This document shows positions 2-25,377 of a stretch of 34,169 bases of DNA, piece after piece. Position numbers and translations under genes: made by a program. The notes under the pieces are model-generated. The model was given only the letters and a program-made list of their open reading frames with translations. It ran no database searches and was not told the DNA's origin. The first letter of the stretch is position 1. Each line of letters starts with the position of its first letter. The stretch is from Syntrophomonadaceae bacterium. GTDB taxonomy: Bacteria > Bacillota > Dethiobacteria > DTU022. The DNA lies in assembly GCA_007131435.1 (NCBI GenBank), contig SLQM01000210.1, forward strand, positions 1 to 34,169, given 5' to 3'.

Positions 2-529
2 CTACGTGAAAATATGCCTCCAGGCAGCAGGGTGGTTATTGATCAATTTATAGATTATACAAGGTCAAGGGCACTAACTTATTACGAAGGTGAAAATGGA
101 TTCGTAGTCCATACAGACTTTACCAATCCATATTGTCCGCAGGTAAGAAGAGAAATATTGCAAGCCGGCAGTATCCTCGGCCAGGATTTAGTAGATGGCG
201 GGTGCTATGTTTGTTGCGAGGGACCTCGTTTTGAAACCCCTGCGGAAGTAAAGATGATTTCCACCTGGGGAGGCGATCTTGTTGGCATGACAAACGTTCC
301 TGAAGTAGTTCTCGCACGTGAAGCAGGTCTTTGCTATGCAACTATTGCCTTGCCTACCAATTATGCGGCAGGGATATCTGTTACCCCCCTCACTCATGAA
401 GAAGTGCTGGAAGAGATGGATAAAACAAAGCCTGAACTTGATCGGCTGCTTGCCGGGTGTATAGAAGCGGTAACGGCAGAAAAAACATGCAGCTGCCGTG
501 AATCAGGAAAACACTGGCCTGGAGTATAA
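2..529 (+). CDS. mtnP: 5'-methylthioadenosine (or methylthioinosine) phosphorylase, C-terminal part; the 5' end lies outside the window
   Basis: The frame is open back to base 2, so the gene is cut by the window edge. The translation carries PNP/MTAP-family blocks (CYVCCEGPRFETPAE, WGGDLVGMTNVPEVVLAREAGLCYATIALPTNY). mtnA follows 4 nt downstream. Confidence 0.85.
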   Translation, partial: LRENMPPGSRVVIDQFIDYTRSRALTYYEGENGFVVHTDFTNPYCPQVRREILQAGSILGQDLVDGGCYVCCEGPRFETPAEVKMISTWGGDLVGMTNVPEVVLAREAGLCYATIALPTNYAAGISVTPLTHEEVLEEMDKTKPELDRLLAGCIEAVTAEKTCSCRESGKHWPGV

Positions 530-533
530 ATTT

Positions 534-1580: not shown

Positions 1581-1624
1581 AACAGCTGTATAATTTGCTA
1601 AGAATCTACTAGGAGGATGTTTAC

Positions 1625-5272: not shown

Positions 5273-6253
5273 ATGGAGGTTGGAACAATTTTATATTTAG
5301 ACAGGAAGGATATTATTAAAGCCGTTGAACCCGAAGAAGTAATGGATGTAATAGAGAACGCATATGCTATGGATCTTGAAGGGAATTATTATATGCCTCA
5401 CAGGATGCATGTTAACAAAGGCCCTAATACGCTCTTATATATGCCCTGCTTTACCGGTGATGTTTTCGGCACAAAAATCCTGTCGCTATTTCCTGGAAAT
5501 GCAAAACATGGTAAACCGGTAATTAGCGGGGTTGTTATATTAAATGATGCTGAAACGGGAACTCCCCAGGCTATTTTAGACGGCGCAGTTATAACAGGGC
5601 TGAGGACCGGTGCTGTTGGCGGAGTAGCAGTGCGCCATACTGCTCCAGATTATCTAGAATCTTTAGGATTAATTGGTTCAGGCGCCCAGGGTTTTTTCCA
5701 GGTCTATTTTGCCTGCAAGGCCCGTCCAACAATTAAAGAAGTTTTCTTATATGATCTTTCAACTAGCAAAATAAAGCTTCTGCAGGGTAAACTGAAGCAG
5801 GAATTCCCTGGTATCGCTTTTAAGTCAACAACTTCAAGCACTGAGTTGCTTTCTAAGACAAGCTTGATAATTACCGCTACTCCCTCCAATGAACCAGTTT
5901 TGCCTGACGATCCAAAACTTCTTCAAAACAAGCATTATATCGGGATAGGATCTTATAAACCCGATATGAGGGAGTATCCAAGGGCAATTTACAACCTGGT
6001 GAAAAATGTTTTTATCGATACTGAACATGGTTTTGAAGAATCCGGTGATATGATAATACCGTTAAGAGATAACTGGGTTGAGCAAGATTTCTTTGTAAAA
6101 ATGGGCGAGTTAATCAAAAATAAAGAACGATATGAAACAAAAAGGGGGACCACATTTTTTAAATCTGTCGGCATGGCTCTTTTCGATATCACAGTATCAG
6201 AGTATATTTACGAACAGGCTTTGATAAAAGGACTGGGCACAAAAATAAAATAA
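5273..6253 (+). CDS. Ornithine cyclodeaminase/mu-crystallin family NAD(P) oxidoreductase; could be a true ornithine cyclodeaminase or a Delta1-pyrroline-2-carboxylate reductase
   Basis: OCD/mu-crystallin hallmarks are present (ILYLDRKDI N-terminus, ITGLRTGAVGG, Rossmann GLIGSGAQG, KSVGMALFD). No Shine-Dalgarno (SD) sequence precedes the ATG at 5273. A TAGAAT -10-like hexamer lies at 5262-5267, so the mRNA may be leaderless, or the internal GGAGG (5276-5280) may serve a nearby non-ATG start. Confidence 0.8.
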   Translation: MEVGTILYLDRKDIIKAVEPEEVMDVIENAYAMDLEGNYYMPHRMHVNKGPNTLLYMPCFTGDVFGTKILSLFPGNAKHGKPVISGVVILNDAETGTPQAILDGAVITGLRTGAVGGVAVRHTAPDYLESLGLIGSGAQGFFQVYFACKARPTIKEVFLYDLSTSKIKLLQGKLKQEFPGIAFKSTTSSTELLSKTSLIITATPSNEPVLPDDPKLLQNKHYIGIGSYKPDMREYPRAIYNLVKNVFIDTEHGFEESGDMIIPLRDNWVEQDFFVKMGELIKNKERYETKRGTTFFKSVGMALFDITVSEYIYEQALIKGLGTKIK

Positions 6254-6272
6254 GGATGGGGAGTACCTGGAT

Positions 6273-7859
6273 ATGATAATAAGTCAACCTCCAAGTATTT
6301 TTAATGATGTAATGGGACCGGTTATGCGCGGGCCTTCAAGCTCACATACTGCCGCTTCAGTCAGGATAGGGAACCTTACCAAGCAATTTTTTAAATACGA
6401 CCTGGCTTCATTTAGCGTTGAATTTGAAAGCCAGGGTTCGCTGGCAACCACCTATAAAACCCAGGGATCTGATTTTGGTTTGATCGGCGGGCTTCTGTGG
6501 ATGGAGCTTGATGATGATCGGCTCTTAGAATCAGCAAAGATAGCAAACGAAAATAACATTGCGGTAAATTTTTCCGTGACCCGTTTTGATGCAGAACATC
6601 CCAATACTTACCGAGTAACTGCGATAGATCGGATCGGTAATAAATACTGTCTGATATTTATTTCCACAGGAGGCGGGATGTTTGAGCTAAAAGAAATTAA
6701 CGGAGCTCCTGTTTCAATTAAAGGTGACTTTTTCGAAACATTAATATTTATCGATGCATCAAATAAAGATGTACTAAATAAGCACATGGAACGAATCAAC
6801 AAATTATTTCCCGATCCTGATTACTGCATCGTTGTTGACGGTGATAGATTTATTTTAATCAATATTAAAACGGAAAGTGAACTGCCATCTTTTGTACGCA
6901 AGGTGATCGAACTATTTGAAAAGGTAAGCGCTATCGTTCATTTAAGCCCGGTTCTTCCAGTTCGTTCCAGGAAGGAGCTAAAGATGCCCTTCAGCGATGA
7001 AAACGATCTTTTAATAGTGGCAAACGAAAAAGAATTGGATCTTTGGAAAATGGCTGTTCATTACGAAATGGAGCGTGGTGGTATGCTCCCTGATGAAGTG
7101 ATACAGATGGCTAAACATATTTTACAAGCAATGGACTGTTCGGTTAGAACTGGCCTGGAAGGCAAAGAATATAAAAATCGCATGCTTGAACCCCAGGCAG
7201 TTAAAATATTCGAGTACGAGGGTAAAATTATCGGAGGGCAGGTTATAAAAAAAATCATTACTTACACTGCAGCGGTTATGGATGCCAAAAGTTCAATGGA
7301 AGTAATTGTTGCAGCACCAACTGCAGGCGCATGCGGAGTTATACCTGGAACTTTAATTGCAGTTGCGGAAGAAGAAGGTTTGGAAGAAGATTCAGCCCTT
7401 AAAGGATTACTGGCTGCTTCTGTCATCGGAATTTTCATAGCTAATAAAAGTACTTTTGCCGCAGAAGAATGCGGATGCCAGGTTGAATGCGGTTCTGCTT
7501 CAGCTATGGCTGCAGCGGGTTTAGTCCAGATGTTTGGCGGTACAGTTCAACAATCCCTTACAGCTGCTGCTATTGCCATACAAAATATCATGGGCCTGGT
7601 ATGCGATCCAGTTGCTGAAAGGGTTGAAGTTCCCTGCCTGGGGAAAAATATTCTGGCAGCTGTTAATGCGCTTGCCTGTGCCAACATGTCACTTTCCGGA
7701 TTTAGCAATGTAATTCCGCTTGGAGAAACCATTGATGCCTTTGACAAGGTTGGCAGAATGCTGCCTGCTGAGCTGCGCTGTACTGGTGGCGCGGGCTTGT
7801 CGAAAACGCCTTCGGCCCAAGCCTGGTTTAGAAAACTTGAAAATCAGATAGAGGATTAA
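6273..7859 (+). CDS. Fe-S-dependent L-serine-dehydratase-family protein, fused beta+alpha domains (528 aa); substrate uncertain
   Basis: The N-terminal beta-type motif VMGPVMRGPSSSHTAASVRIG is present. The alpha-domain cluster-ligand blocks are also present (APTAGACGVIPG, ECGCQVECGSASAMAAAG, GLVCDPVAERVEVPCLGKN). A GGATGGGGAG RBS precedes the start. The gene begins 19 nt after the OCD-family gene and is probably co-transcribed with it. Confidence 0.8.
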   Translation: MIISQPPSIFNDVMGPVMRGPSSSHTAASVRIGNLTKQFFKYDLASFSVEFESQGSLATTYKTQGSDFGLIGGLLWMELDDDRLLESAKIANENNIAVNFSVTRFDAEHPNTYRVTAIDRIGNKYCLIFISTGGGMFELKEINGAPVSIKGDFFETLIFIDASNKDVLNKHMERINKLFPDPDYCIVVDGDRFILINIKTESELPSFVRKVIELFEKVSAIVHLSPVLPVRSRKELKMPFSDENDLLIVANEKELDLWKMAVHYEMERGGMLPDEVIQMAKHILQAMDCSVRTGLEGKEYKNRMLEPQAVKIFEYEGKIIGGQVIKKIITYTAAVMDAKSSMEVIVAAPTAGACGVIPGTLIAVAEEEGLEEDSALKGLLAASVIGIFIANKSTFAAEECGCQVECGSASAMAAAGLVQMFGGTVQQSLTAAAIAIQNIMGLVCDPVAERVEVPCLGKNILAAVNALACANMSLSGFSNVIPLGETIDAFDKVGRMLPAELRCTGGAGLSKTPSAQAWFRKLENQIED

Positions 7860-7880
7860 AAGGGATATGTTTGTGTCAGC

Positions 7881-7886
7881 TATAAT
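7881..7886 (+). promoter_or_regulatory. Possible -10 hexamer (TATAAT) for the ABC transporter operon, implying a leader of about 360 nt
   Basis: A perfect TATAAT is preceded by GTCAGC, which resembles the GTCAGTG-TATAAT context of the strong promoter at 22869-22897. No convincing -35 element is present. Confidence 0.25.
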
Positions 7887-8245
7887 CTTCAGGTATAAAG
7901 ATATTGCCGTGTGAAATTAATATATATTACTTAAAAAATATGATAATGATAATATAAATTTAATCGATTCTTAAAGAGGAATAATAGCTCCGATAGCGAA
8001 TAAATAAGGTCGTGCAATGTATGGACTATTGGATAAAATAATATTCATAGTCGCCAATTTGTGTAAGGAGGTGAAATATTTTATATAGTCTTTCAGGCTC
8101 TTCCAATATTTAAAGCTTAGATAGGAAGTTTCAAAGGAAAGTTTTAGTTTTCTTTTTTAATTGCAAGGCTCTGCTCTTAACCTAAACCAACCAGTAATAA
8201 ATTAATGGTAAGGAGCAAAATTATTTAGAGGAGGTCATTAGCAAA

Positions 8246-9385
8246 TTGTTGAACAGTAAAAAGCTTTTTATCCTGTTTTTAGTTACAGCTATGATGGCTT
8301 TTGGTACATTTGGTTGTGGCGATGATGGACCTGCAGATGATGCAGATGGTGAAGTATTAATTGGGATCATGGTGCCAACCACAGGTTCTGAAGCTGCAGA
8401 CGGCATTGATATGGAAAATGCTGCCAAACTGGCAGTAGAAGAAATCAATGCCCGCGGCGGAGTACTGGGTCATAGAATAGTTACCACCACCGGTGACGAT
8501 GGATGCGATCCTTCCATGGCCACAGCTGCGGCAAGCCAGCTTGTATCAGAAGAAGTTATTGCGCTAGTCGGCGGTTACTGCTCTGGCGCGACTTTGCCTA
8601 CACTGGCTATATACGGTGATGCAGGCATTCCATTTGTCGTGGCTGCGTCTAACGCTACTTCGCTAATCGATGAAAACCCCGGCTGGGCTTTCATGATCAA
8701 CAGTACCGGCCTGGACCAGGCAGCAAGTGCAGTTGACAAGTTTATCGCTCTTGGCGTTGAAACAATCGGAGTAATTGACTCGGGAGATGCTTATTCTGCC
8801 GACCTGAAAGCACAGACCATACTGCAGTGGGAAGCTGCAGGTTACGAAGTTGTTGCTGATGATACAGTCCAGCGTGGAGAAGTAGATTTTTCTGCATTTG
8901 TAACAACTATCATGGCTAACCAGCCCGATGCTATTTACTGGACCGGTTACCAGGCAGAAGGCGCCCTCTTAATCCGCCAGTTACGTGAAGGTGGATATGA
9001 GGGAGTTATCATGGTTGGCGACGGTTCAAGTGCCCAGGAGTTAATTGATCTGGCAGGACCGGCAGCCGAAGGAGTGCTATGCACCGGGCCTCCGCTGACA
9101 GATTTCCTTCCCGCAGCACAAAGCTTTATTGAAAATTACGAAGCATCATTCCCCAGGGAACCTGGTGCTTATGCTGCCCTGATGTATGATGCAACAATGC
9201 TGTTGGCTGATGCAATTGAAAGAGCAGGTTCATTTGACAGCGCAGAAATCAGGGATGCCCTTGAAGCAACTGACGGGTTTGAAGGCCTGGCAGGGCCGAT
9301 CATGTTTACCGAGCAAAATACACTGGCAAGAAGTAACTTTGTTATTTTGGAAGCCAGGGATGGTAGATGGGCCCTGGTTGAGTAA
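8246..9385 (+). CDS. ABC transporter substrate-binding lipoprotein, LivK/LivJ-like (type I periplasmic binding fold); ligand probably an amino or imino acid
   Basis: The start is TTG, downstream of AGAGGAGG (8227-8234). The signal peptide ends in Cys (LVTAMMAFGTFGCGDD), followed by an acidic linker. The body matches the Leu/Ile/Val-binding-protein family (IGIMVPTTGSEAADG, GGVLGHRI, DDGCDP, GGYCSGA). Confidence 0.85.
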   Translation: MLNSKKLFILFLVTAMMAFGTFGCGDDGPADDADGEVLIGIMVPTTGSEAADGIDMENAAKLAVEEINARGGVLGHRIVTTTGDDGCDPSMATAAASQLVSEEVIALVGGYCSGATLPTLAIYGDAGIPFVVAASNATSLIDENPGWAFMINSTGLDQAASAVDKFIALGVETIGVIDSGDAYSADLKAQTILQWEAAGYEVVADDTVQRGEVDFSAFVTTIMANQPDAIYWTGYQAEGALLIRQLREGGYEGVIMVGDGSSAQELIDLAGPAAEGVLCTGPPLTDFLPAAQSFIENYEASFPREPGAYAALMYDATMLLADAIERAGSFDSAEIRDALEATDGFEGLAGPIMFTEQNTLARSNFVILEARDGRWALVE

Positions 9386-9405
9386 GCCGCCTGAATAAAA
9401 AGCAA

Positions 9406-9430
9406 GCAGGCCCGGTTTAACCGGGCCTGC
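9406..9430 (+). promoter_or_regulatory. Intra-operon GC-rich stem-loop between the binding-protein and permease genes (mRNA stabiliser or partial terminator)
   Basis: GCAGGCCCGG (9406-9415) and CCGGGCCTGC (9421-9430) form a perfect 10-bp stem with a 5-nt loop. No U-tract follows. Confidence 0.6.
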
Positions 9431-9451
9431 GCCTACTTGAGAGGTGAACAG

Positions 9452-10366
9452 ATGGCTTTACATGAAATTTTACTACAACAGCTATTTAACGGCTTACTGA
9501 TCGGGTCTTTTTACGGGCTTGTCGCCATTGGTTATTCCATGGTATACGGCATTATAAAACTCTTAAACTTTGCTCATGGGGATATTTACATGATCGGCGC
9601 GTTTTGCGGTCTAATATTCCTCACAATTGCCGCTCCGGTAATAGGAGCCGGGTGGCCATCACTGATCGTGGGCCTGCTGATCAGCATGACACTGGTAGGC
9701 CTTTTGGGGGTTGTTATCCAAAGAGTTGCTTACAGGCCAATGCTTAAGGCACCCAGACTTTCTATTTTGATTACAGCCCTGGCTGTATCAATGATTCTTT
9801 ACAATACTGTGATGATCTTATCTGCAGGCCGTTATCGCGTCTTTCCTGCAGAGGTTGGAACAGAAAGTTTCTTCATCGGCACACTTCGTTTTACTGAAAC
9901 CAGGATTATATTGATAGTAGCCGCTTTTACACTGATGTTTATATTGCACATGTTTATAACCCGGACCATGTACGGCAAGGCTATGCGCGCCATAGCCCTT
10001 GATCGCGACACATGCCAGCTAATGGGTATAGATGTTTACAAAATTATTGCCATAACCTTTTTTGTTGGATCTGCACTGGCTGCAGCCGCAGGGATCATGG
10101 CCGGTGTTTATTACGGCACCATTCACTTTTTTATGGGCTTCCTGATCGGTTTAAAAGCTTTTACTGCCGCGGTGATCGGCGGGATTGGTATAATACCGGG
10201 AGCAATGCTTGGTGGGCTGCTTCTGGGCCTTTTGGAGGCTTTTGGAACGCAAATACCTTTTATCGGAACGGTCTGGAAAGATGTCTTTTCATTTGCTTTT
10301 TTGATCCTGTTTTTAATTTTTAAGCCTAACGGCCTGCTGGGGCGTGCGGAAAGTGAGAGGATGTAG
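9452..10366 (+). CDS. livH: Branched-chain-amino-acid-type ABC permease (LivH family)
   Basis: This is a polytopic membrane protein with HAAT-family features (FAHGDIYMIGAF, C-terminal FKPNGLLG). The ATG at 9452 follows GAGAGGTG (9439-9446). The ORF-track TTG at 9437 is less likely. Confidence 0.88.
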   Translation: MALHEILLQQLFNGLLIGSFYGLVAIGYSMVYGIIKLLNFAHGDIYMIGAFCGLIFLTIAAPVIGAGWPSLIVGLLISMTLVGLLGVVIQRVAYRPMLKAPRLSILITALAVSMILYNTVMILSAGRYRVFPAEVGTESFFIGTLRFTETRIILIVAAFTLMFILHMFITRTMYGKAMRAIALDRDTCQLMGIDVYKIIAITFFVGSALAAAAGIMAGVYYGTIHFFMGFLIGLKAFTAAVIGGIGIIPGAMLGGLLLGLLEAFGTQIPFIGTVWKDVFSFAFLILFLIFKPNGLLGRAESERM

Positions 10367-10371
10367 CTACT

Positions 10372-11376
10372 ATGGCAGAAACAAAAATTAAACGCAAAGT
10401 AACTGACACTATAGATAGCGTCATCATAACCTTGTTCCGAATTTTCGACAACAAGGTTTACCGCTACACCTTCCTGTTTGCAGCAGCTGCTTTTTTGATA
10501 GTGCTGCCTAATCTTTCAAGTAGGTTCACTCAGGAGATTATGACAAATCTTTTTTTCTACGTGGTGGTTTGCCTGGGCCTGAATATAATAGTTGGCTATG
10601 CCGGTTTGCTGCATCTAGGCTATGCTGCTTTTTTTGCGGTCGGCGCGTACACTACTGGCATATTAAGCTCCAGGATGGGTATGGACTTCTGGTTAACCAT
10701 CCCTTTCAGCGTTTTTGCTGCGGTTTTGGCCGGCCTTGCCATAGGTTTTCCCACCTTGAGACTACGTGGTGATTACCTGGCCATTGTTACCCTCGGTTTC
10801 GGGGAAATAACCAGGTTAACAATCAGAAACTTAGATATCACCGGTGGCGCTGTAGGGTTAATCGGTATACAGCGGCCTGTTTTATTTGGTATCACCCTGA
10901 ACCAGATTTCTCATTTCTATTATATGTTTTTTATATTAGCAATCCTGGCTATATTTGTTTCATACAGGCTTCATGATTCACGGATGGGTAGATCATGGGA
11001 GTATATCAGGGAAGATGAAGATGCAGCAGCGGCTATGGGTATAAATGTTACTACTTCAAGACTATACGCCTTTGTAATTGGCTCTTCATTCGGAGCCGTG
11101 GCCGGCTCATTTTTTGCAGCCAAGATGACAGCTATATCGCCAGATTCATTCATGTTTATCCATTCGGTTATGTTCTTGATGGCCGTAGTTTTGGGAGGGA
11201 TGGGTAAAATCCCTGGCGTTGTCCTGGGCTGTATAATTGTAGTGCTTATACCTGAGATATCAAGGGATATCGGGCAATACAGGCTTTTGATATTTGCTGT
11301 AATGCTTTTGATCATTATGCTTTACCGACCGCAGGGTATATGGCCGGACAGGCCGACCATATCAGCCAAAGAATAA
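10372..11376 (+). CDS. livM: Branched-chain-amino-acid-type ABC permease (LivM family)
   Basis: This is a hydrophobic protein with LivM blocks (LGYAAFFAVGAY, LRGDYLAIVTLGFGEI, YRPQGIW). It starts 5 nt after livH. Confidence 0.88.
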   Translation: MAETKIKRKVTDTIDSVIITLFRIFDNKVYRYTFLFAAAAFLIVLPNLSSRFTQEIMTNLFFYVVVCLGLNIIVGYAGLLHLGYAAFFAVGAYTTGILSSRMGMDFWLTIPFSVFAAVLAGLAIGFPTLRLRGDYLAIVTLGFGEITRLTIRNLDITGGAVGLIGIQRPVLFGITLNQISHFYYMFFILAILAIFVSYRLHDSRMGRSWEYIREDEDAAAAMGINVTTSRLYAFVIGSSFGAVAGSFFAAKMTAISPDSFMFIHSVMFLMAVVLGGMGKIPGVVLGCIIVVLIPEISRDIGQYRLLIFAVMLLIIMLYRPQGIWPDRPTISAKE

Positions 11377-11390
11377 TAGGGGGTGTTTAA

Positions 11391-12170
11391 GTGGCACTGC
11401 TTGAAATAAAAGACTTAACTTTAAGATTCGGCGGGTTGTGCGCCGTAAATGCCCTCTCGCTGGAGATAGAAGATGGTTCAATAAGGAGTTTGATTGGCCC
11501 TAATGGTGCCGGCAAAACCTGTGTTTTCAATTGCTTAACCGGTTTTTACAAGCCCAGTGAAGGTGAAATGCTGTTCCAGGGGACTAGCCTGGTCAACAAG
11601 AAGCCCCACTATATAACTTATTTAGGGTTAGCCCGTACTTTTCAAAACCTGCGCCTTTTTAAAGAAATGACTGTGCTTGAGAATGTAATGTCTGGCATGC
11701 ACTGCCGAACGAACGCCGCATTCCTGACAACAGTATTAAGAACAAAAGGTCAAAAAGCAGAAGAAAAGCATATTCGTGAAGTGTCAGAAGAGTGTCTTGA
11801 CTTTGTTGGTATTCTTGACAAGAAGAACTATATGGCCAGGAACCTGCCTTACGGGGATCAACGCCGGGTGGAGTGGGCCAGGGCGTTGGCAACTCAGCCG
11901 AAACTGTTATTACTGGATGAACCTGCAGCAGGCCTGAATAAAGATGAGAAGGCAAGATTAATTAAATTAATGCACCGAATAAGGGACGAGCGAAGTATTA
12001 CTATATTCCTGATTGAGCACGATATGGGCCTGGTAATGAAAATCTCAGAAAAAATATTTGTAATTGATTATGGGGTGAAGATTGCCGAAGGAACAGCACA
12101 GGAAGTCCGTGACAATCCAAAAGTTGTGGAAGCTTACTTAGGAAAAGAGGAAGAGGAGGAGAGTGCATGA
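11391..12170 (+). CDS. livG: ABC transporter ATP-binding protein (LivG family)
   Basis: Walker A (GPNGAGKT), the signature-like LPYGDQRRVEWARAL and Walker B (LLLLDEPAAGL) are present. The start is GTG, after AGGGGGTG. Confidence 0.9.
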   Translation: MALLEIKDLTLRFGGLCAVNALSLEIEDGSIRSLIGPNGAGKTCVFNCLTGFYKPSEGEMLFQGTSLVNKKPHYITYLGLARTFQNLRLFKEMTVLENVMSGMHCRTNAAFLTTVLRTKGQKAEEKHIREVSEECLDFVGILDKKNYMARNLPYGDQRRVEWARALATQPKLLLLDEPAAGLNKDEKARLIKLMHRIRDERSITIFLIEHDMGLVMKISEKIFVIDYGVKIAEGTAQEVRDNPKVVEAYLGKEEEEESA

Positions 12171-12886
12171 GTCAACCAGTTCTTTCTCTAAATAACCTTG
12201 AAACCAGGTACGGACAAATTTATGCCCTGCGTGGAATAAACATTGAAGTAAAAGAAGGAGAAATTGTAGCCCTTTTGGGTGCAAATGGCGCTGGAAAGAG
12301 TACTACACTTAAAACTATTTCAAGCCTGATCCAGGCCTCTGCAGGAAATGTTGTGTTCCAGGGCCAGGATATTACCTATCATCACCCGCATACTATAGTA
12401 GAAATGGGCGTTATACATGTGCCGGAAGGCCGGATGATCTTTAAGGAGCTAACGGTAAAAGAGAACCTAGAGCTTGGCTCTTTCACCCTGCATGATAATG
12501 TTGAACGGAAAAAAAGAATGAAGCGAGCTTTCGAAATGTTTCCAAGGTTGGAAGAAAGGCAGCAGCAAATGGGTGGATTTTTGTCCGGTGGAGAACAGCA
12601 AATGCTGGCAATTGCCCGGGCCTTGATGACTGAGCCAAAAGTTCTGCTGCTTGACGAGCCATCCATGGGCCTTGCGCCAATTATTGTAAACAACATTATG
12701 GATATTATCCGGCAAATTAACAAGGAGCAGGGGACAACAATACTTCTTGTCGAACAAAATGCAAAGGCAGCTTTAAAACTTGCCCACAGGGGTTATGTAC
12801 TCGAAACGGGTGAAATTGTTATGGAAGGAAATGCGGAAGATCTGAGCAAAGACGAGAGTATTGTCAAAGCTTATCTTGGTGAATAA
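12167..12886 (+). CDS. livF: ABC transporter ATP-binding protein (LivF family)
   Basis: Walker A (GANGAGKST), the signature LSGGEQQMLAIARAL and Walker B (LLLDEPSMGLAP) are present. The start overlaps the livG stop as ATGA. Confidence 0.9.
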   Translation: MSQPVLSLNNLETRYGQIYALRGINIEVKEGEIVALLGANGAGKSTTLKTISSLIQASAGNVVFQGQDITYHHPHTIVEMGVIHVPEGRMIFKELTVKENLELGSFTLHDNVERKKRMKRAFEMFPRLEERQQQMGGFLSGGEQQMLAIARALMTEPKVLLLDEPSMGLAPIIVNNIMDIIRQINKEQGTTILLVEQNAKAALKLAHRGYVLETGEIVMEGNAEDLSKDESIVKAYLGE

Positions 12887-12993: not shown

Positions 12994-14019
12994 ATGTTGA
13001 ACTGGAAACCACCGGATAACTGGCTTAGAATTAAGGCTATTGATGCACATACTGCCGGAGAACCGCTGCGCATCTATACAGCAGGTTACCCCGAACCACA
13101 GGGTAATACCATTTTAGAGAAACGCCGCTATGCTTTAGAGAATTTGGACTACCTGAGAACCGCGACAATGTGGGAACCGCGAGGGCATGCCGATATGTAC
13201 GGCTGCCTGATAACTGATCCTGTAACAGAAGATGGGGATATTGGTGTTCTTTTTTTGCACAATGAAGGCTATAGCAGTATGTGCGGTCACGGTATAATAG
13301 CTATAACAAAAGTCGGACTTGAAACAGGTTTGCTAAAAAACATAAAAGATAATAAAACAGTTCGAATTGATACACCCGCAGGCAGGGTAACTGCAACAGC
13401 GGCCTGGAAAGACGGTCTTGTCAGCGAGGTGTCTTTTAATAACGTTCCATCATTTCTCCAGGAATCTGACCAGGAAATTGATCTGCCTGGCTTAGGCATA
13501 GTTAAGTACGATCTGGCCTTTGGTGGTGCCTACTACGCACTGGTCAAGGCTGAAGATTTACAGGTCGGGCTTTCAGCTTCCAGTTTTCGCCGTTTAATAG
13601 AGCTTGGGATAAGCTTGAAACAGGCCATTGCCGGCAGTAGAGAAATTGTTCATCCTTTTGAAAAAGATCTTGGATTTCTCTATGGGGTTATTTTTATTGG
13701 CGATCCGGAAGATAAGAATAATCACAGCAGAAATGTTTGTGTCTTTGCGGATGGAGAAGTGGATAGAAGCCCAACCGGTACCGGTGTCAGCGCCAGGGCA
13801 GCAGTGCATTACAGCCGCGGTGAAATAGATCTAAACCAGCCATTTACAGTTGAGTCAATCCTCGGAACATGCTTTAGAGGGGAAGCGATAGAGGAAATCC
13901 AATACGGGCCTTACCGGGCTGTAATTCCGAAAATTACCGGTTCAGCCCATATCTGCGGTTTAAACACTTTACTTATCGATCCTGAAGATTCTCTTAAACA
14001 CGGGTTTATTTTGCGTTAA
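12994..14019 (+). CDS. Proline racemase superfamily protein with a Cys/Thr catalytic pair: predicted trans-3-hydroxy-L-proline dehydratase
   Basis: The first catalytic motif, SSMCGHG, has a Cys at codon 97 (13282-13284). The second motif reads DRSPTGTG, with Thr at codon 261 (13774-13776), where racemases and epimerases have DRSPCGTG. A GAAGGAG RBS precedes the ATG. Confidence 0.8.
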   Translation: MLNWKPPDNWLRIKAIDAHTAGEPLRIYTAGYPEPQGNTILEKRRYALENLDYLRTATMWEPRGHADMYGCLITDPVTEDGDIGVLFLHNEGYSSMCGHGIIAITKVGLETGLLKNIKDNKTVRIDTPAGRVTATAAWKDGLVSEVSFNNVPSFLQESDQEIDLPGLGIVKYDLAFGGAYYALVKAEDLQVGLSASSFRRLIELGISLKQAIAGSREIVHPFEKDLGFLYGVIFIGDPEDKNNHSRNVCVFADGEVDRSPTGTGVSARAAVHYSRGEIDLNQPFTVESILGTCFRGEAIEEIQYGPYRAVIPKITGSAHICGLNTLLIDPEDSLKHGFILR

Positions 14020-14974
14020 AGCCGCTTCCCACGGTGACCGGGATATTTTTGCTTTTGCTGTTCATACCGGCAGATATTGCTTCAAGTTCCCGTGTAGTGT
14101 GCGTAGCCAATGTTGAACAGTTATAAACCTGGCCTAAATGATCGTAAGTTTCGCTGCCCAAACGGTGGTATGGCAGAAGTTCAATTAGTTTTACCTTTGG
14201 AAGCTTTTCTACAAACTGCAGTGTTCCCATCAGGTTTTGCATATCGTCATTAAAACCCTTGATCAGGGGTATACGGATCACCAAGCTAAACGGATTAGGG
14301 CTTGACGAAGTTTTTAGTAAGTTGTCCAAGATAATTTCATTACCTTCACCAGTCCACTTCTTGTGAACTTTACTGTTTATATGTTTTATATCCACGTAGA
14401 GTAAATCAAGCAGAGGCAGTATTGTATAAATTATTTGTGAATCAGCAAAAAAACAGCTCTCCATTGCCGTATGAATTCCTGCTTTTTTAGAGCTCTTGAG
14501 GATCGCAGCAGTAAATAAAGGCTGCGCAAGTGGTTCTCCACCGCTGATGGTAATGCCTCCGCCGGAGTGATAATAGAATATTTCATCCTTTGCGATTTCT
14601 TCCATCACCTGGTTAACCGTCATCCGGTAGCCATATTTTTTAACAGCCCCGTTTAGGCAGGCATCTGCACAACTAAAGCATAATGCACATTCATGATTCT
14701 TATAGGTAACCTTATCTCCTGTGCTGCAGGTGGAAAGAGCTCCAGAAGGACATATATTAACGCACCTTCCACATGCGCTGCATAAACTCCTGATATAACC
14801 TCTTTCCATGCCGGAATCCCTGGACTCAGGGGTAGAGCACCAGGGGCAATTTAAAGGGCATCCTTTTAAAAATATTACTGTCCGTAACCCCTGGCCATCA
14901 TGAATCGAGGATCTTTCAAACCTGAGGACATTACCTGCCAGGTGGCCTGTGTTGGTAGTACCGTTAATAGACAT
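14006..14974 (-). CDS. Glycyl-radical enzyme activating enzyme (radical SAM) for the upstream GRE
   Basis: The radical SAM motif CPLNCPWC is preceded by IHDGQGLRTVIFLKGC. A ferredoxin-like insert has two Cys clusters (CSACGRCVNICP, CALCFSCADAC), and a GGGITISGGEPL SAM-binding block is present. The start lies 3 nt after the GRE stop, with an internal GGTGGGA RBS. Confidence 0.9.
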   Translation of the reverse strand: MSINGTTNTGHLAGNVLRFERSSIHDGQGLRTVIFLKGCPLNCPWCSTPESRDSGMERGYIRSLCSACGRCVNICPSGALSTCSTGDKVTYKNHECALCFSCADACLNGAVKKYGYRMTVNQVMEEIAKDEIFYYHSGGGITISGGEPLAQPLFTAAILKSSKKAGIHTAMESCFFADSQIIYTILPLLDLLYVDIKHINSKVHKKWTGEGNEIILDNLLKTSSSPNPFSLVIRIPLIKGFNDDMQNLMGTLQFVEKLPKVKLIELLPYHRLGSETYDHLGQVYNCSTLATHTTRELEAISAGMNSKSKNIPVTVGSGFNAK

Positions 14975-14977
14975 ACA

Positions 14978-17392
14978 TTATCCCACCGATATGCCATGCT
15001 GGACGGTGCGCCCTATTATTTCATCCTGCACATCTTTACCCAATTCAGAAAAATAGGCGGTATATCCTGCAACACGAACTAGCAGGCCCTTGTATTGTTC
15101 AGGATTATTTTGAGCATCGATTAAAGTCTTTTGGTCTATTACATTAAACTGCACATGGTAAACTCCCAGGCTGCACATGCTTTTTAGAAGGGCCATCAGC
15201 TGGCTTATGCCATTTTCTGTTTGAAGCATGGCCGGTTCAACTTTTAAATTTAACAGGGTTCCCTGCACAAAGCGTCCATGAGGAAGATGGGCTACTGATT
15301 TCAAGACAGAGCCCGGGCCGTTTAAGTCAGTACCACCACTTGGACTTACACCATCAGCCAAAGGCTGCCAAGCTTTTCGTCCTGAAGGGAGCGCTCCCAC
15401 TTCCAGCCCAAATGGGGTATTCCCGGATACAGGCAAGATACCTGGCGTCATCCTGCCATACTTGCCTTCATATTTCTCAATTTCATCTGCTATAAAGGTA
15501 AATACTTCTCCTGCAATATGATCAACAAAGGGATCATCATTACCATACTTGGGAGCTTCCCTGCAGAATTTATGAATTTCTTCATACCCTTCGAAATCTT
15601 TATTTAAGGCGTCAATTAACATATCCATTGCAACTTTGCCAGTTTCAAATACAAGGTACTTTACAGCAGCCAGGCTGTTGACCAGGTCTGCAACACCGAT
15701 TAATATTATTCCGTTCCCCGCGTTATATTTCGCGCCTCCCCAGGCATAATCTAAGGCATTTTCAATACAATCTTTAAAGGTTAAAGAGAGCGCCGGGCAG
15801 GGGCGGCCAAGGCATATTTCATCAATAACATGACTTCCGGCGACTACTGCCTTTACAACATGGGCGAACTGTTTTTTAAATGCGTTAAAAAACTGATCGT
15901 AACTTTTAAATTCATTAACATTTCCTGAATCTGTGCCGATATACTGGCCGCTTTTCTGACTACGGCCATTAAACATGGTAAGCTCTACAACTGACCCCAG
16001 GTTAATATCTGCAAGGGCGGTATACTGCCGCATGCGCCCTTCCAGGTTGGTTTCAACACATCCGCAGGGATTCCAATTGTAGGCTTCTTTTAACGGCACG
16101 CCCTTATTCATCAGCATAATTATTCCCTGGTCATCATTATGAAAGGCTGGAAAACCGGTGCCAAGGCTGATTAGTTCAACAATTTTGCGCAAGAAGCTAT
16201 TCGGATTTTTTGCCAGGCTGTAACGGACTGACAGAGAAGGCTGGTAGAGCTGCACATCCATGGTAGACTGCAAGATCATGTAGGAAAGTTCATTAACGGC
16301 ATCTTTACCCGTATTGTCTACACCGCCAACACAGACATTTTGGAACATGGGGTAACCTGCAGCAAACTCGGCTGTCAGGGCATCCTGGAAAAGACAGGGT
16401 TCGCTAAATTTAACCCAGAGACAATTTAACAGTTCCTGCGCCTCATCTTTAGTGATCTTCCCATCCATGATATCTGCATGGAAGTAAGGAAAAAGGTATT
16501 GATCCATCCTGCCGGGGTTATAGCTGGCAGCATTTTGTTCCATAAAGATTGCAACCTGGTAGAAGTAGACGGACTGAAGGGCTTCGTGAAAAGTCCTGGC
16601 AGGGTTTAAGGGCACATGGCTGCATACTTCGGCTATACTCAACAGCTCTTTTTTACGCTTCTGATCATGTTCAATGGCTGCAAGTTTTTTTGCTTCTTCG
16701 GCATACCTTTCTGCCAACCTCACGATCCCCTCAGCTGCCAGGGTTAACGACTGCAGGTAACAATCTTTTTCATAATCTCCAGGTCTTGTAATATCAAGGT
16801 TTGCCCTTCTGCGGTTAATAGTATCAATAATACCCTTAATACCGGCTTTTAGCAGCCATTCATAACCCGCTGTTGTTTCTCCCCAACCGCGCACTGCTTT
16901 GCGATCGATATACACAACTCCGTTGTCACGAAGAGTTTTTGTGTTATCAGGTATCTGGGCCAGCCATTCTTCATAATTTGAGCGTCCCTGCCAGTACGGT
17001 TTTATTTCACTAAGAAATAAGTCGCGATCATCCGGTTTGAGGTAAAAGGGATCGTAAGGCCTGCTGCTGATTGTATCTAACTCACGGTCAAGAACTGACC
17101 AGCAGGAATCGGCACAAAGGATTCCTCCCCGGATTTTGCTTCCAGGGCAGCCAACTATCAGTTCATCGTCCCATATTTTAATAGTTTTTTCAAAACACTG
17201 CTTTTTAAAAGCACTTGCTTTTCGGATAACCAGCGGTTTTCCCTCAGATTCTCTAAAACCTTTAGTCAGCAGGTATGCATTTTCAAGATCCATTTCAGGG
17301 CTGGTTTTTAATACCCGTTTCTTTAAACGCTTAATTCTATCAGTGTATGCAGGCATATAATCCTGAGCAGGCTCATTTATGTCATAATCCAT
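14978..17392 (-). CDS. Glycyl radical enzyme, 1,2-eliminase (PFL2/glycerol-dehydratase-like) class, unknown substrate; not HypD-like in its active-site blocks
   Basis: The Gly-radical motif LLVRVAGYTAYF has its Gly at codon 776 (15065-15067). The Cys loop NPCGCVET has Cys445 and Glu447 (16052-16060). The protein is 804 aa, and an AGGGGG RBS lies 7 nt upstream of the ATG at 17392. Where HypD has APGHTV and WDAFCPGR, this protein has RGWGETTAGY and NAASYNPGR. Confidence 0.9.
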   Translation of the reverse strand: MDYDINEPAQDYMPAYTDRIKRLKKRVLKTSPEMDLENAYLLTKGFRESEGKPLVIRKASAFKKQCFEKTIKIWDDELIVGCPGSKIRGGILCADSCWSVLDRELDTISSRPYDPFYLKPDDRDLFLSEIKPYWQGRSNYEEWLAQIPDNTKTLRDNGVVYIDRKAVRGWGETTAGYEWLLKAGIKGIIDTINRRRANLDITRPGDYEKDCYLQSLTLAAEGIVRLAERYAEEAKKLAAIEHDQKRKKELLSIAEVCSHVPLNPARTFHEALQSVYFYQVAIFMEQNAASYNPGRMDQYLFPYFHADIMDGKITKDEAQELLNCLWVKFSEPCLFQDALTAEFAAGYPMFQNVCVGGVDNTGKDAVNELSYMILQSTMDVQLYQPSLSVRYSLAKNPNSFLRKIVELISLGTGFPAFHNDDQGIIMLMNKGVPLKEAYNWNPCGCVETNLEGRMRQYTALADINLGSVVELTMFNGRSQKSGQYIGTDSGNVNEFKSYDQFFNAFKKQFAHVVKAVVAGSHVIDEICLGRPCPALSLTFKDCIENALDYAWGGAKYNAGNGIILIGVADLVNSLAAVKYLVFETGKVAMDMLIDALNKDFEGYEEIHKFCREAPKYGNDDPFVDHIAGEVFTFIADEIEKYEGKYGRMTPGILPVSGNTPFGLEVGALPSGRKAWQPLADGVSPSGGTDLNGPGSVLKSVAHLPHGRFVQGTLLNLKVEPAMLQTENGISQLMALLKSMCSLGVYHVQFNVIDQKTLIDAQNNPEQYKGLLVRVAGYTAYFSELGKDVQDEIIGRTVQHGISVG

Positions 17393-17462
17393 GTTAACGC
17401 CCCCTATGATCAGCGGTAAAGCTTAATTTAATATATTTAGTATAACATATGAATTAATTATT

Positions 17463-17471
17463 TGTTATAAT
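17463..17471 (+). promoter_or_regulatory. Extended -10 promoter (TGtTATAAT) for the activase/hypD operon, within a 102-bp divergent control region
   Basis: TGTTATAAT at 17463-17471 matches TGnTATAAT exactly, about 24 nt upstream of the GTG start at 17495. The -35 element is weak (TAACAT). Confidence 0.5.
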
Positions 17472-17494
17472 TAGTAATGAGGTGTACATAACTG

Positions 17495-18391
17495 GTGAAA
17501 AAAGGCCTTATTTTTAACATTCAACGATACTCACTGCATGACGGTCCCGGAATCAGGACCACGGTATTTTTTAAAGGCTGCCCTTTAAAGTGCCAATGGT
17601 GTCAAAACCCTGAAGGAATTGATACTGACGTTGAACTGTTCAGGCACAATCAAAAATGTATTCACTGTGGTTCTTGTATGACTCATTGCCATGAAAAAGC
17701 AATTGACCTTACTGACAGCGGCCCCCTGGTAAACCGTCAGGCCTGTAATCGCTGCATGGAGTGTGTGGATATCTGCCCCACTGGCACGTTAGAAATGGCG
17801 GGAAAAGAATACAGTGTAAATGAAGTTGTTCAGGCAGCGTTAAAGGATATTCTTATCTATGAAGAATCGGGGGGAGGAGTAACCATATCTGGTGGTGAAC
17901 CCCTCCTGCAATATGAATTTCTATTAGAACTTCTGTTAGCTCTAAAAAAGCTGAATATCCACACTGCCATTGAAACAAGCGGCTACTGCAGTTGGGAAAA
18001 AATAAAAGAGATCAGCAAGATTACTGATTTGATATATTATGATTTAAAATTAATAGATGATAATTCCAGCAGGATATTTACCGGAGCCTCAAATATTTTA
18101 ATTATGGATAACCTGGAACGTTTAGTAATAAGCGGAGCTAATATCGTGGTTAGAATGCCGCTTATACCATCCGTTAATGACACCCGGGATAATATTGAAC
18201 ATACTGCCGGGTATTTAAGTTCAATCGGTGTTAAATGCATTGAACTTCTTCCTTACCACAATTTAGGCAGTGTAAAGTATGAAGGGCTTGATTTAGAATG
18301 CCCTTTTAATTACAGGCCCAACAGTGAACTTATTCGTCAAGCTTCTGTAATATTCGAAGCGAATGGAATATATATAACAAGCGAGGGATAA
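17495..18391 (+). CDS. Glycyl-radical enzyme activating enzyme (radical SAM), HypD activase
   Basis: The N-terminus reads IFNIQRYSLHDGPGIRTTVFFKGCPLKCQWCQNPE (CX3CX2C). Two extra Cys clusters (CIHCGSCMTHC, CNRCMECVDICP) and the GGGVTISGGEPL block are present. The start is GTG, after GAGGTG. Confidence 0.92.
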   Translation: MKKGLIFNIQRYSLHDGPGIRTTVFFKGCPLKCQWCQNPEGIDTDVELFRHNQKCIHCGSCMTHCHEKAIDLTDSGPLVNRQACNRCMECVDICPTGTLEMAGKEYSVNEVVQAALKDILIYEESGGGVTISGGEPLLQYEFLLELLLALKKLNIHTAIETSGYCSWEKIKEISKITDLIYYDLKLIDDNSSRIFTGASNILIMDNLERLVISGANIVVRMPLIPSVNDTRDNIEHTAGYLSSIGVKCIELLPYHNLGSVKYEGLDLECPFNYRPNSELIRQASVIFEANGIYITSEG

Positions 18392-18394
18392 CTT

Positions 18395-20776
18395 ATGGTC
18401 GTTGCTGAGAGAGGTATAACTGAGCGAGTAAAAAAATTACGGCATCAGAGCGAGAATACTGCCCCATCAATTACAATAGAAAGAGCCCAACTGGTAACGG
18501 AAGCATACCGTGAAAATGCTGATTCAGTTTCTGCGCCCGTATTGCGTGCACTAACTTTTAAGCATCTAATGGAGAATAAAGCTGTTTGCATCAATGAAGG
18601 GGAATTGATCGTGGGCGAGAGGGGACCAAAACCTCAATCTGCACCAACTTATCCCGAACTGTGCTGCCATACTGTAGAAGATCTTGATTTAATAAGTAAG
18701 CGAAATAAAATTGCTTTCCAGGTAAGCGATGAAGTGAAGAATGCGCAGGAAAAAGAGATAATTCCTTTCTGGAAAGGGCGTTCCATGCGTGATAAAATTT
18801 TTAAACGCATGAATAACAATTGGCATGCCTGTTATAAAGCTGGAATATTTACCGAATTCATGGAACAACGGGCGCCAGGCCATACAGTGGCCGGGGATAA
18901 AATATACAAGCTGGGCATGCTCGATATTAAAGAAGAGATCAATGCTGAGCTTCTGGCTATGGATTATACAAACGACCAGGATGCTTATGCCAAAGCTGAG
19001 CAGCTTAAGGCTATGGCAATTTGTGCTGATGCATTAATCACCTATGCCCGCAGACATGCCGTAAGGGCAAGAGAAATGGCCGCTGTCGAAAGTTCTGCAG
19101 AAAGAACAAGGGAACTTGAGCAGATTGCTACAATTTGTGATCGCGTTCCCGCTGCTGCACCGGAAACTTTATGGGAAGCATTGCAGTATTACTGGTTTGT
19201 TCACCTGGGGGTAATAACTGAGCTTAATACGTGGGATGCATTTTGCCCTGGCAGGCTTGATCAACATTTAGAGCCCTTCTATCAGAAAGATTTAAAAGAA
19301 AGCAGGCTCACAACATATTCTGCTAAAGAGCTGTTGCAGTGTTTTTGGATTAAATTCAATAACCAGCCGGCGCCACCTAAAGTTGGCATTACTTTGAAAG
19401 AGAGCGGTACTTACACGGATTTTGCTAATATCAACCTTGGCGGATTACGCCCCGATGGTAAAGACGGCGCAAATGATGTCACTTACCTTCTCCTTGAAGT
19501 TATTGATGAAATGCGACTCTTGCAGCCCAGCTCCAATATCCAGGTCAGCAAAAAGAACCCCGATCTGTTTATTAAGAAAGCAGCGCATATTATCCGGAAG
19601 GGTTGGGGGCAACCATCTGTTTTTAATGTAGAAGCAGTAATTATTGAGCTATTACGGCAGGGTAAAACACTTGTTGACGCCCGCAGCGGTGGAACCAGCG
19701 GTTGTGTTGAAACTGGTGCGTTCGGTAAAGAAAGTTATATACTAACCGGTTATTTTAACCTGACCAAGGTTTTGGAAATCACCCTGAATAACGGGGTTAA
19801 CCCGGCAGATGGAACTCTGCTTGGCATTGAAACAGGCAACCCAAGATATTTTAAAAACTTTGATCAACTGCTATCAGCGTTTGAGAGGCAGTTGAACTAC
19901 TTTATTAATATTAAAATAGAAGGAAATCAAATTATTGAAAAGCTTTATGCAGATCAAATGCCTGCGCCTTTCCTATCGTTAATCATTGATGATTGCATAA
20001 AAAATGCCAGGGATTACAATGCAGGCGGAGCGCGCTACAACACAAACTATATCCAGGGTGTGGGTATAGGAACAATTACAGATTGCCTCTCAGCAATTAA
20101 ATATCATATTTATGACCAAAAAAGGTTTAACTGGGATGAAATGATGTACTGTTTAGATAAGAACTTTGCTGCTAACGAAGTTATGCGGCAGATTTTATTA
20201 AATAAAACACCCCGTTACGGTAATGATGATGATTATGCAGATTCTATTATGCAGCAGGTATTTAAAATCTTTCATGGACTTATTGATGGGCGCAAATCAA
20301 TTAGGGGCGGCACTTATCGTATAAATATGCTTCCTACTACCTGCCATGTTTATTTTGGGTCGGTTATTGGAGCAACTCCGGACGGTAGATTTGCAGGCAA
20401 ACCACTTTCTGAAGGTATTTCACCGGTCCAGGGGGCCGACTTTAAAGGACCTACTGCTGTAATAAAATCTGCTTCGAAGATGGACCACCTTCTAACCGGC
20501 GGTACACTGCTTAACCTTAAATTTTCTCCCGCCGTTCTTGAAGGGGAGAAAGGGCTTAACAGCCTTGTGCATTTAATCAGGAGTTACTTCAGGATGGATG
20601 GACATCATATCCAGTTTAACGTGGTAGATGCTGATACTTTAAGAAAGGCACAAAATAATCCTGAAGAGTACCGCAACTTAATTGTGAGGGTAGCCGGTTA
20701 CAGTGATTATTTCAGCAATCTTAACGAGGAGCTACAAAATGAAATAATAGCTAGAACTGCTCATGCTAAATTGTAG
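18395..20776 (+). CDS. hypD: trans-4-hydroxy-L-proline dehydratase (glycyl radical enzyme HypD)
   Basis: Long blocks match my recollection of Clostridioides difficile HypD (FTEFMEQRAPGHTV, NTWDAFCPGRLDQH, FNNQPAPPKVGITLKESGTYTDFANI, GGTSGCVETGAFGKESYILTGY, MLPTTCHVYFG, DGHHIQFNV). The Gly-radical motif LIVRVAGYSDYF has its Gly at codon 768. Cys437 and Glu439 are offset by +3 from the C. difficile numbering. Confidence 0.92.
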   Translation: MVVAERGITERVKKLRHQSENTAPSITIERAQLVTEAYRENADSVSAPVLRALTFKHLMENKAVCINEGELIVGERGPKPQSAPTYPELCCHTVEDLDLISKRNKIAFQVSDEVKNAQEKEIIPFWKGRSMRDKIFKRMNNNWHACYKAGIFTEFMEQRAPGHTVAGDKIYKLGMLDIKEEINAELLAMDYTNDQDAYAKAEQLKAMAICADALITYARRHAVRAREMAAVESSAERTRELEQIATICDRVPAAAPETLWEALQYYWFVHLGVITELNTWDAFCPGRLDQHLEPFYQKDLKESRLTTYSAKELLQCFWIKFNNQPAPPKVGITLKESGTYTDFANINLGGLRPDGKDGANDVTYLLLEVIDEMRLLQPSSNIQVSKKNPDLFIKKAAHIIRKGWGQPSVFNVEAVIIELLRQGKTLVDARSGGTSGCVETGAFGKESYILTGYFNLTKVLEITLNNGVNPADGTLLGIETGNPRYFKNFDQLLSAFERQLNYFINIKIEGNQIIEKLYADQMPAPFLSLIIDDCIKNARDYNAGGARYNTNYIQGVGIGTITDCLSAIKYHIYDQKRFNWDEMMYCLDKNFAANEVMRQILLNKTPRYGNDDDYADSIMQQVFKIFHGLIDGRKSIRGGTYRINMLPTTCHVYFGSVIGATPDGRFAGKPLSEGISPVQGADFKGPTAVIKSASKMDHLLTGGTLLNLKFSPAVLEGEKGLNSLVHLIRSYFRMDGHHIQFNVVDADTLRKAQNNPEEYRNLIVRVAGYSDYFSNLNEELQNEIIARTAHAKL

Positions 20777-20895: not shown

Positions 20896-20971
20896 AGGGG
20901 AGTAGCTCAACTGGCAGAGCGGCGGTCTCCAAAACCGTAGGCTGCGGGTTCAAGTCCTGTCTCCCCTGCCA
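20896..20971 (+). tRNA. trnW: tRNA-Trp (anticodon CCA), with a genome-encoded 3' CCA
   Basis: The hand-folded cloverleaf has acceptor AGGGGAG/CTCCCCT, D arm GCTC-AACTGGCA-GAGC and anticodon stem GCGGT/ACCGT with loop CTCCAAA. The T arm is GCGGG-TTCAAGT-CCTGT. Discriminator G and CCA occupy 20968-20971, giving 76 nt in total. Confidence 0.9.
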
Positions 20972-25358: not shown

Positions 25359-25377
25359 TAAATTGGAAGGACCACAT

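Follow-up and report, generated by a model that had tools for sequence, protein, structure and literature searches.

What does the second glycyl radical enzyme (GRE) encoded on contig SLQM01000210.1 do? The contig belongs to a Syntrophomonadaceae bacterium (GenBank assembly GCA_007131435.1) and was analysed from position 1 to 34,169; this 34,169-nucleotide stretch is referred to here as the window. It encodes HypD, a trans-4-hydroxy-L-proline dehydratase, and opposite the hypD genes a further GRE of 804 amino acids, GRE2, followed by its activase, a radical S-adenosylmethionine (SAM) enzyme. A first, sequence-only reading had guessed a hydroxyproline-type imino acid as the substrate of GRE2 and had considered a new specificity. 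The analysis presented here points to a likely answer: GRE2 and its activase form an HpyG-type N-methyl-hydroxyproline dehydratase with a dedicated radical-SAM activase. The earlier guess about the kind of substrate is thus counted right. The exact substrate we infer, because the gene context differs from that of HpyG, with no MttB methyltransferase gene nearby and a hydroxyproline/proline supercluster around GRE2. Gene structure, catalytic motifs, identity to HpyG, near-identical pocket residues, position in the tree and conserved synteny were all observed directly. GRE2 is an orthologue or near-orthologue of HpyG in another lineage and gene context, and does not represent new chemistry.

GRE2 is encoded at 14978-17392 on the minus strand and was identified from the list of open reading frames (ORFs), sequence motifs, NCBIfam models and its match in the PDB. 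A motif script located the Cys loop GCVE at residues 444-447, giving Cys445 and Glu447, and the Gly loop RVAGY at residues 773-777, giving Gly776. The protein carries YTALA at 457, and the three sequence blocks quoted for it in the sequence-only reading were found at 166 (AVRGWGETTAGY), 285 (EQNAASYNPGRMDQY) and 444 (GCVETNLEGRMRQYTA). The only NCBIfam model that GRE2 passes is the subfamily model TIGR01774 (703.8 bits, cut-off 678.2); it falls below every equivalog cut-off, with 691.5 bits where 1050 are required for CutC (TIGR04394), 639 against 1100 for HypD (NF043068) and 624 against 1000 for HpsG. NCBIfam release 20 holds no model for HpyG or HpzG. By TIGR01774, RVAGY and GCVE, GRE2 is a member of the glycyl radical 1,2-eliminases (the PFL2/glycerol dehydratase subfamily), which upholds the eliminase class, with Cys445/Glu447 and Gly776, that had been read from the sequence.

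The activase proposed for GRE2 (14006-14974 on the minus strand, 322 amino acids) proved equally sound. It matches TIGR02494 at 309.3 bits (cut-off 174.35) and contains the SAM cluster motif C39x3C43x2C46, together with two auxiliary ferredoxin-type CxxCxxCxxxC motifs at C65-C75 and C96-C106. The GRE2 locus therefore has the adjacent cognate radical-SAM activase that serves as a criterion for GRE 1,2-eliminases, and an activase gene lies directly 3′ of the GRE gene in nearly all related loci. Only 3 nucleotides separate the GRE2 stop codon from the activase ATG, and the two genes are therefore probably translationally coupled.

A sequence search against all PDB chains places GRE2 closest to HpyG. 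The top match is 8ID1, with 1226 bits and 66% identity across 783 amino acids without a gap, followed by 8IOF with 940 bits and 52% identity. Several CutC entries reach at most 668 bits, and lower scores are found for glycerol dehydratase (1R8W, 532 bits), propanediol dehydratase (5I2A, 531 bits), HypD (6VXC, 519 bits) and HplG (7VUA, 376 bits, 28th among the PDB matches). HpyG and HpzG were reportedly first described by Jiang et al., in ACS Catal 2024, 14:4407. A 2026 review of GREs identifies 8ID1 as HpyG and 8IOF as HpzG, which acts on the D-isomer, and describes both enzymes as dehydrating their substrate to N-methyl-pyrroline-5-carboxylate, with Cys435 positioned close to C5 and Glu437 forming a hydrogen bond to the substrate (PMC13450708). 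The sequence-only reading had named high identity and a shared active site with a characterised GRE as the finding that would speak against novelty, and HpyG shows both. The specificity of GRE2 is therefore not considered new. Nor do the non-HypD blocks taken earlier as a sign of novelty retain that meaning, since AVRGWGETTAGY and EQNAASYNPGRMDQY are identical in HpyG and GCVETNL-G is near-identical.

The substrate pocket was compared at the positions that contact the substrate in HypD, mapped through a 51-sequence alignment. These contacts are Phe152, Arg156, His160, Trp277, Asp278, Lys326, Ser334, Asp339, Phe340, Cys434, Glu436, Tyr450 and Thr645 (PMC7077986). At the corresponding places GRE2 has R164, R168, E172, a deletion (at Trp277), A289, Q336, A344, M349, F350, C445, E447, D462 and V655. 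GRE2 equals HpyG at 11 of the 12 alignable positions, as defined by homology with HypD and not by the HpyG structure; the exception is Ala344, which is Ser in HpyG. Four of the residues differ from HpzG, namely R164 (K), A289 (S), F350 (T) and D462 (E), and all four are HpyG-like. An AlphaFold2 model of GRE2, built on a 24-sequence alignment, was unusable (mean pLDDT 58.7, barrel core below 50).

Two of these positions bear on the nature of the substrate. The ring nitrogen of the HypD substrate is hydrogen-bonded by two aspartates, directly by Asp278 and via a water molecule by Asp339 (PMC7077986). In GRE2, as in HpyG, they are replaced by Ala289 and Met349, and both replacements are invariant in 27 of 27 members of the GRE2 clade. 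This pattern suggests, and is consistent with, a retained pocket for the N-methyl group. A broader comparison used the 65 alignment columns that hold one residue throughout the HpyG clade and another in both HpzG-type sequences; GRE2 shows the HpyG state in 49, the HpzG state in 6 and neither in 10.

Phylogeny leads to the same placement. In a neighbour-joining tree (a simple distance tree over 791 columns), the groups branch from the outside inwards as HypD-type enzymes, two distant GREs, the HpzG pair, a Desulfobacterales clade and finally two sister clades. One of these contains 8ID1 with sequences from Lactonifactor, Enterococcus, Clostridium fessum and similar genomes, and the other contains GRE2 with those from Syntrophomonadaceae, Desulfosporosinus and other Bacillota metagenome-assembled genomes (MAGs). 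Both the tree and the discriminating columns thus put GRE2 on the HpyG side of the split between HpyG and HpzG, with HpzG outside the two sister clades.

If GRE2 works as the family description has it, the reaction would proceed as follows. The activase would cleave SAM reductively, and the resulting 5′-deoxyadenosyl radical would take a hydrogen from Gly776. The glycyl radical would in turn generate a thiyl radical on Cys445; the C4 hydroxyl of the substrate, hydrogen-bonded to Glu447, would leave as water, and return of the hydrogen to C4 would yield N-methyl-pyrroline-5-carboxylate. A pyrroline-5-carboxylate (P5C) reductase-type enzyme could then reduce this product to N-methylproline. In the window this would probably be ProC, encoded at 30651-31457 on the plus strand, 13 kb from GRE2 (TIGR00112, 265.7 bits, cut-off 196.75), which is a candidate reductase for the P5C or N-methyl-P5C formed by HypD and GRE2. 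We infer the actual substrate, this reductase partner, import through the neighbouring ABC genes and where the N-methylated substrate comes from.

The genes around GRE2 are largely concerned with hydroxyproline and proline. Because the GRE2 start at 17392 faces the start of the hypD activase at 17495, the head-to-head partner of GRE2 is the hypD activase (17495-18391, plus strand), which belongs to the paralogous system, and then hypD itself (18395-20776, plus strand). The head-to-head arrangement described earlier thus holds, with the activase gene as the first member of the divergent pair. HypD is firmly assigned by NF043068 (1374.9 bits, cut-off 1100) and keeps all 13 of the 13 HypD contact residues, and it contains the HypD blocks that the sequence-only reading had cited from the paralogue. 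At its other end, the GRE2 activase overlaps by 14 nucleotides, 3′ end to 3′ end, with a proline-racemase-family gene at 12994-14019 on the plus strand. This gene has the Cys/Thr pair of the trans-3-hydroxyproline dehydratase type; it scores below the NCBIfam equivalog cut-offs, and its earlier label of a 3-hydroxyproline dehydratase, tail-to-tail with the GRE2 system, is reasonable with that limit. It was also considered as an N-methyl-hydroxyproline 2-epimerase, a role rejected since its catalytic pair is the Cys/Thr of dehydratases and not Cys/Cys.

Further upstream, a plus-strand gene of the OCD/mu-crystallin family (5273-6253), below the equivalog cut-offs, finds its best match in the pyrroline-2-carboxylate reductase structure 6T3E. 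Taken with the gene at 12994-14019, it resembles the Thermococcus route from trans-3-hydroxyproline to proline. Between the two, Pfam and NCBIfam identify a Liv-type ABC importer at 8246-12886 (plus strand), made up of a substrate-binding protein (8246-9385) with a pair each of permeases and ATPases, which is a candidate uptake system for hydroxyproline-type substrates.

Downstream of hypD follow, in order, a tRNA-Trp (CCA) gene (20896-20971, plus strand), an ornithine aminotransferase gene, three co-directional redox genes and proC. The redox genes (22974-30487, plus strand) encode a NuoE/NuoF-like fusion of 794 amino acids, a 1323-amino-acid Fe-S flavoprotein and a DAO-family flavoprotein of 398 amino acids. 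The 1323-amino-acid protein is itself a fusion, with NuoG/HydA-like Fe-S, polyferredoxin and MvhD/FlpD domains in its N-terminal part, followed by Fer2_4, Pyr_redox_2 and BFD. Its C-terminal half and the DAO protein are best matched by the alpha and beta subunits of 1Y56, the L-proline dehydrogenase of Pyrococcus horikoshii. The set looks like an NAD/ferredoxin-coupled, possibly bifurcating, dehydrogenase of proline or N-methylproline; we know of no characterised equivalent with such a fusion. The set adjoins hypD and the ornithine aminotransferase gene in other Syntrophomonadaceae MAGs, where it is conserved. Because of the OCD-family gene, the gene at 12994-14019 and the DAO and 1323-amino-acid proteins, the neighbourhood is best understood as a collection of routes from hydroxyprolines to proline or P5C, to which GRE2 adds one more entry.

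Some expected partners were sought in the window and not found. The window's ORFs of at least 100 amino acids include neither an OrtAB-like gene nor a Cys/Cys epimerase, in agreement with the sequence-only reading, and no cut or microcompartment gene lies near GRE2 in the window. An Rfam scan of the window returned the tRNA alone, with no riboswitch near the operon. At the far left of the window (14-2932, plus strand) lie a methylthioadenosine (MTA) phosphorylase-like ORF, the methylthioribose-1-phosphate isomerase MtnA, and an amidohydrolase related to 5′-deoxyadenosine/MTA deaminases. The first of these has 171 amino acids and aligns with the C-terminal part of MTA phosphorylase models only, from model position 93. 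These genes possibly serve the salvage of radical-SAM by-products; a link to the two GRE activases would be speculative.

The control region between GRE2 and the hypD activase (17393-17494) is 102 bp long and contains two back-to-back extended -10 boxes, one for each direction, of the TGTTATAAT / TGTTATACT type. Promoter-like sites were found at 17442-17471 (plus strand) and 17468-17439 (minus strand). Such sites are no more numerous here than chance would give, and the counts of the promoter and terminator scan as a whole do not exceed those expected from shuffled sequence, so that only the conservation of the -10 boxes across loci is informative: aligning 10-11 syntenic loci shows both to be conserved. 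The overlapping boxes of TGTTATAAT type, in opposite orientation, form an imperfect palindrome, TATAACA-N15-TGTTATA. An AGGGGG ribosome-binding site precedes the GRE2 ATG, and no regulator gene in the window is adjacent to the region. Given the two conserved extended -10 boxes in the divergent region, GRE2 and its activase gene appear to form their own transcription unit.

Gene context was compared across related loci by ORF calling and by BLAST and Pfam matches. The HpyG-clade loci used are those with a GRE 71-81% identical to 8ID1, and their neighbourhood is an observation made here rather than a published definition. In these loci the GRE and activase genes occur with a P5C reductase-like gene, an MttB-family methyltransferase gene, a helix-turn-helix-cupin or AraC regulator gene and a major facilitator superfamily (MFS) transporter gene. 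Two arrangements were seen in the GRE2 clade. In the first, a GntR regulator and/or a P5C reductase-like NADP oxidoreductase comes after GRE and activase (loci L002, L008 and L010, and Ca. Formimonas); a P5C reductase-like gene is thus linked to the GRE and activase in both sister clades. The second is that of the window and is kept in 10 or more MAG loci from Syntrophomonadaceae or Bacillota, with the order Liv-type ABC importer, proline-racemase-family gene, activase and GRE2 on the opposite strand, and divergent hypD activase and hypD, followed by the series from tRNA-Trp to proC. Desulfosporosinus has a co-directional variant in which the ABC genes are followed by GRE2, two activase genes and hypD. 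The ABC importer is accordingly syntenic with GRE2 in the Syntrophomonadaceae MAGs, and lies directly upstream and co-directional in Desulfosporosinus.

Variations on these arrangements were also recorded. In five loci (L004 6889-7917, L012 8252-9280, L020 8584-9612, L033 13377-14414 and L041 13408-14436) the Cys/Thr gene is replaced by another Pro_racemase homologue, about 30% identical to it and co-directional with GRE2 and the activase. Of its two catalytic positions, the first is occupied by Ser (MSGSN) and the second by Thr (DRSPTGTG), a pair that fits neither the racemase/epimerase nor the known dehydratase type. It adjoins a membrane protein of 395-413 amino acids with no Pfam match (e.g. 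L004 7912-9099). In a further Bacillota MAG (L007 13385-16271), GRE2 and its activase are followed by an Ldh_2-family dehydrogenase, then by a short unannotated ORF, a GD_AH-type dehydratase, a GntR regulator and a TctC receptor. The Ldh_2 family includes pyrroline- and piperideine-2-carboxylate reductases and N-methyl-amino-acid dehydrogenases. Finally, one contig of an uncultured Ruminococcus (L029) encodes a pair of GREs, both accompanied by an activase, at 5508-7892 (plus strand) and 15672-17888 (minus strand). One is HpyG-like (59% identical to GRE2), the other HpzG-like (67% identical to 8IOF), and an MttB-family gene lies between them; the pair suggests that both stereoisomers are used.

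Several observations weigh against assigning GRE2 the substrate of HpyG. An MttB gene is absent from the window and adjoins the GRE in none of the inspected GRE2-clade loci. GRE2 is instead surrounded by genes for unmethylated hydroxyproline and proline: HypD, the trans-3-hydroxyproline dehydratase type, the pyrroline-2-carboxylate reductase type, ornithine aminotransferase and the proline-dehydrogenase-like complex. An identity of 66% does not guarantee the same substrate, HpyG and HpzG (8ID1 and 8IOF) being about 50% identical and differing in stereospecificity, and the list of HpyG contacts derives from homology with HypD rather than from the 8ID1 structure. Position 344 is the sole alignment column fixed differently between the GRE2 and HpyG clades, and it is a ligand position: Ala344 of GRE2 falls on HypD Ser334, an essential carboxylate ligand (PMC7077986). 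Segments near the pocket also differ between GRE2 and HpyG, at 459-463 (ALADI against SYADY), 562-563 (IL against DA) and 709 (V against N).

These points could mean that the GRE2 clade of Syntrophomonadaceae, Desulfosporosinus and relatives carries out the radical dehydration of the HpyG/HpzG family on a shifted physiological substrate, such as unmethylated cis-4-hydroxy-L-proline, a ring with a different N-substituent or another stereoisomer. The neighbouring ABC importer would take up such a substrate, which would then feed, alongside HypD, into P5C and proline. The missing MttB neighbour, the tight linkage to hypD (divergent in the MAG loci, co-directional in Desulfosporosinus), the clade-specific Ala344 and the changes in the nearby segments all favour such a shift. 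However, the polar and charged residues of the pocket are all identical to those of HpyG, and the retention of hydrophobic Ala289 and Met349 would argue for an N-alkylated ring. Moreover, the Ser/Ala alternation at 344 also occurs between the two HpzG-type sequences, and positions 460 and 463, which are Tyr in HpyG, are aliphatic in HpzG as well as in the GRE2 clade. Since enzymes acting on N-methyl-hydroxyproline show these same states, neither the difference at 344 nor those at 460 and 463 clearly argue for a changed substrate class. A search of the literature on hydroxyproline betaine with MttB and on GREs for cis-4-hydroxyproline yielded nothing further. We therefore regard a shifted substrate as unlikely, though worth keeping in mind: if true, the GRE hydroxyproline dehydratases would gain another specificity, and a multi-substrate anaerobic 'hydroxyproline supercluster' would be defined.

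It is much less probable still that GRE2 is a D-specific enzyme of the HpzG type. HpzG is its second-best characterised relative, at 940 bits and 52% identity, and 6 of the 65 discriminating columns are in the HpzG state. Against this, 49 are in the HpyG state, R164, A289, F350 and D462 are HpyG-like and not K, S, T and E, the tree puts HpzG outside the group of GRE2 and HpyG, and the window lacks a Cys/Cys 2-epimerase.

That GRE2 is a choline trimethylamine-lyase (CutC) is scarcely credible, although database names might suggest it. Homologues at 74-86% identity to GRE2 fall into more than 100 database clusters, named 'glycyl radical protein', 'pyruvate formate-lyase' or 'choline trimethylamine-lyase', and the last of these is the JGI label on seven homologues of 75-78% identity (P0011, P0013, P0017, P0021, P0060, P0061 and P0100). 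CutC is also the third-best structural family for GRE2. However, the HpyG score is about twice the CutC score, cut and microcompartment genes are missing nearby, and GRE2 clearly fails the CutC equivalog cut-off; the JGI labels are therefore probably wrong. The HplG option of the sequence-only reading, a trans-4-hydroxy-D-proline C-N lyase, fares no better and is hardly tenable: it has the general hydroxyproline context in its favour, but 7VUA scores far below HpyG, HpzG, CutC, glycerol dehydratase, propanediol dehydratase and HypD, and the window lacks ortAB-like genes and a 2-epimerase. A duplicate of HypD is excluded, as the sequence-only reading had already concluded, by 34% identity to the neighbouring HypD, the failed equivalog cut-off and the replacement of His160, Trp277, Asp278, Ser334, Asp339, Tyr450 and Thr645 of HypD by Glu, a deletion, Ala, Ala, Met, Asp and Val.

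The assignment of GRE2 as a likely HpyG-type enzyme settles the annotation of a widespread clade. Its main value lies in this annotation, because NCBIfam release 20 is without a suitable model and 'CutC' labels are in circulation; such mislabels would inflate cutC counts in metagenome surveys and estimates of trimethylamine potential. It also places HpyG-type enzymes outside the gut-type, MttB-linked setting, with one of them fixed beside hypD in a conserved cluster. This cluster unites several routes from hydroxyproline to proline or P5C in syntrophic and sulfate-reducing Bacillota, and is useful context for the anaerobic turnover of imino acids and osmolytes.

How, then, does GRE2 compare with the known systems? 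With CutC it shares the eliminase character and the CXE loop; in contrast, CutC cleaves a C-N rather than a C-O bond and has a different pocket. HplG is likewise a GRE acting on a hydroxyproline isomer, but its chemistry is one of isomerisation and ring opening that needs OrtAB and an epimerase, both absent from the window. HypD (PDB 6VXE) has the same GRE 1,2-eliminase fold and CXE and Gly motifs and is a conserved genomic neighbour; C5 abstraction, loss of the C4 hydroxyl from a proline ring and a pyrroline-5-carboxylate product would also be common to both. HpzG belongs to the same family with the same reaction type and has Glu172, Gln336, Met349, Val655 and the CXE loop in common with GRE2, and is set apart by its K/S/T/E at the places of R164, A289, F350 and D462 and by its position outside the clade of GRE2 and HpyG.

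The closest counterpart is HpyG, which shares with GRE2 the GCVE Cys loop, the RVAGYTAYF Gly loop, identical AVRGWGETTAGY and MEQNAASYNPGRMDQY blocks and a dedicated activase immediately downstream. GRE2 is distinguished by Ala344 in place of Ser, by ALADI for SYADY after the Cys loop and by further peripheral changes. Its lineage is one of environmental Bacillota, whereas the nearest relatives of 8ID1 form a gut-type clade (Lactonifactor, Enterococcus, C. fessum). Unlike the HpyG clade, GRE2 has no adjoining MttB methyltransferase, MFS transporter or helix-turn-helix-cupin regulator, and sits instead in a hypD/trans-3-hydroxyproline/proline supercluster with an ABC importer.

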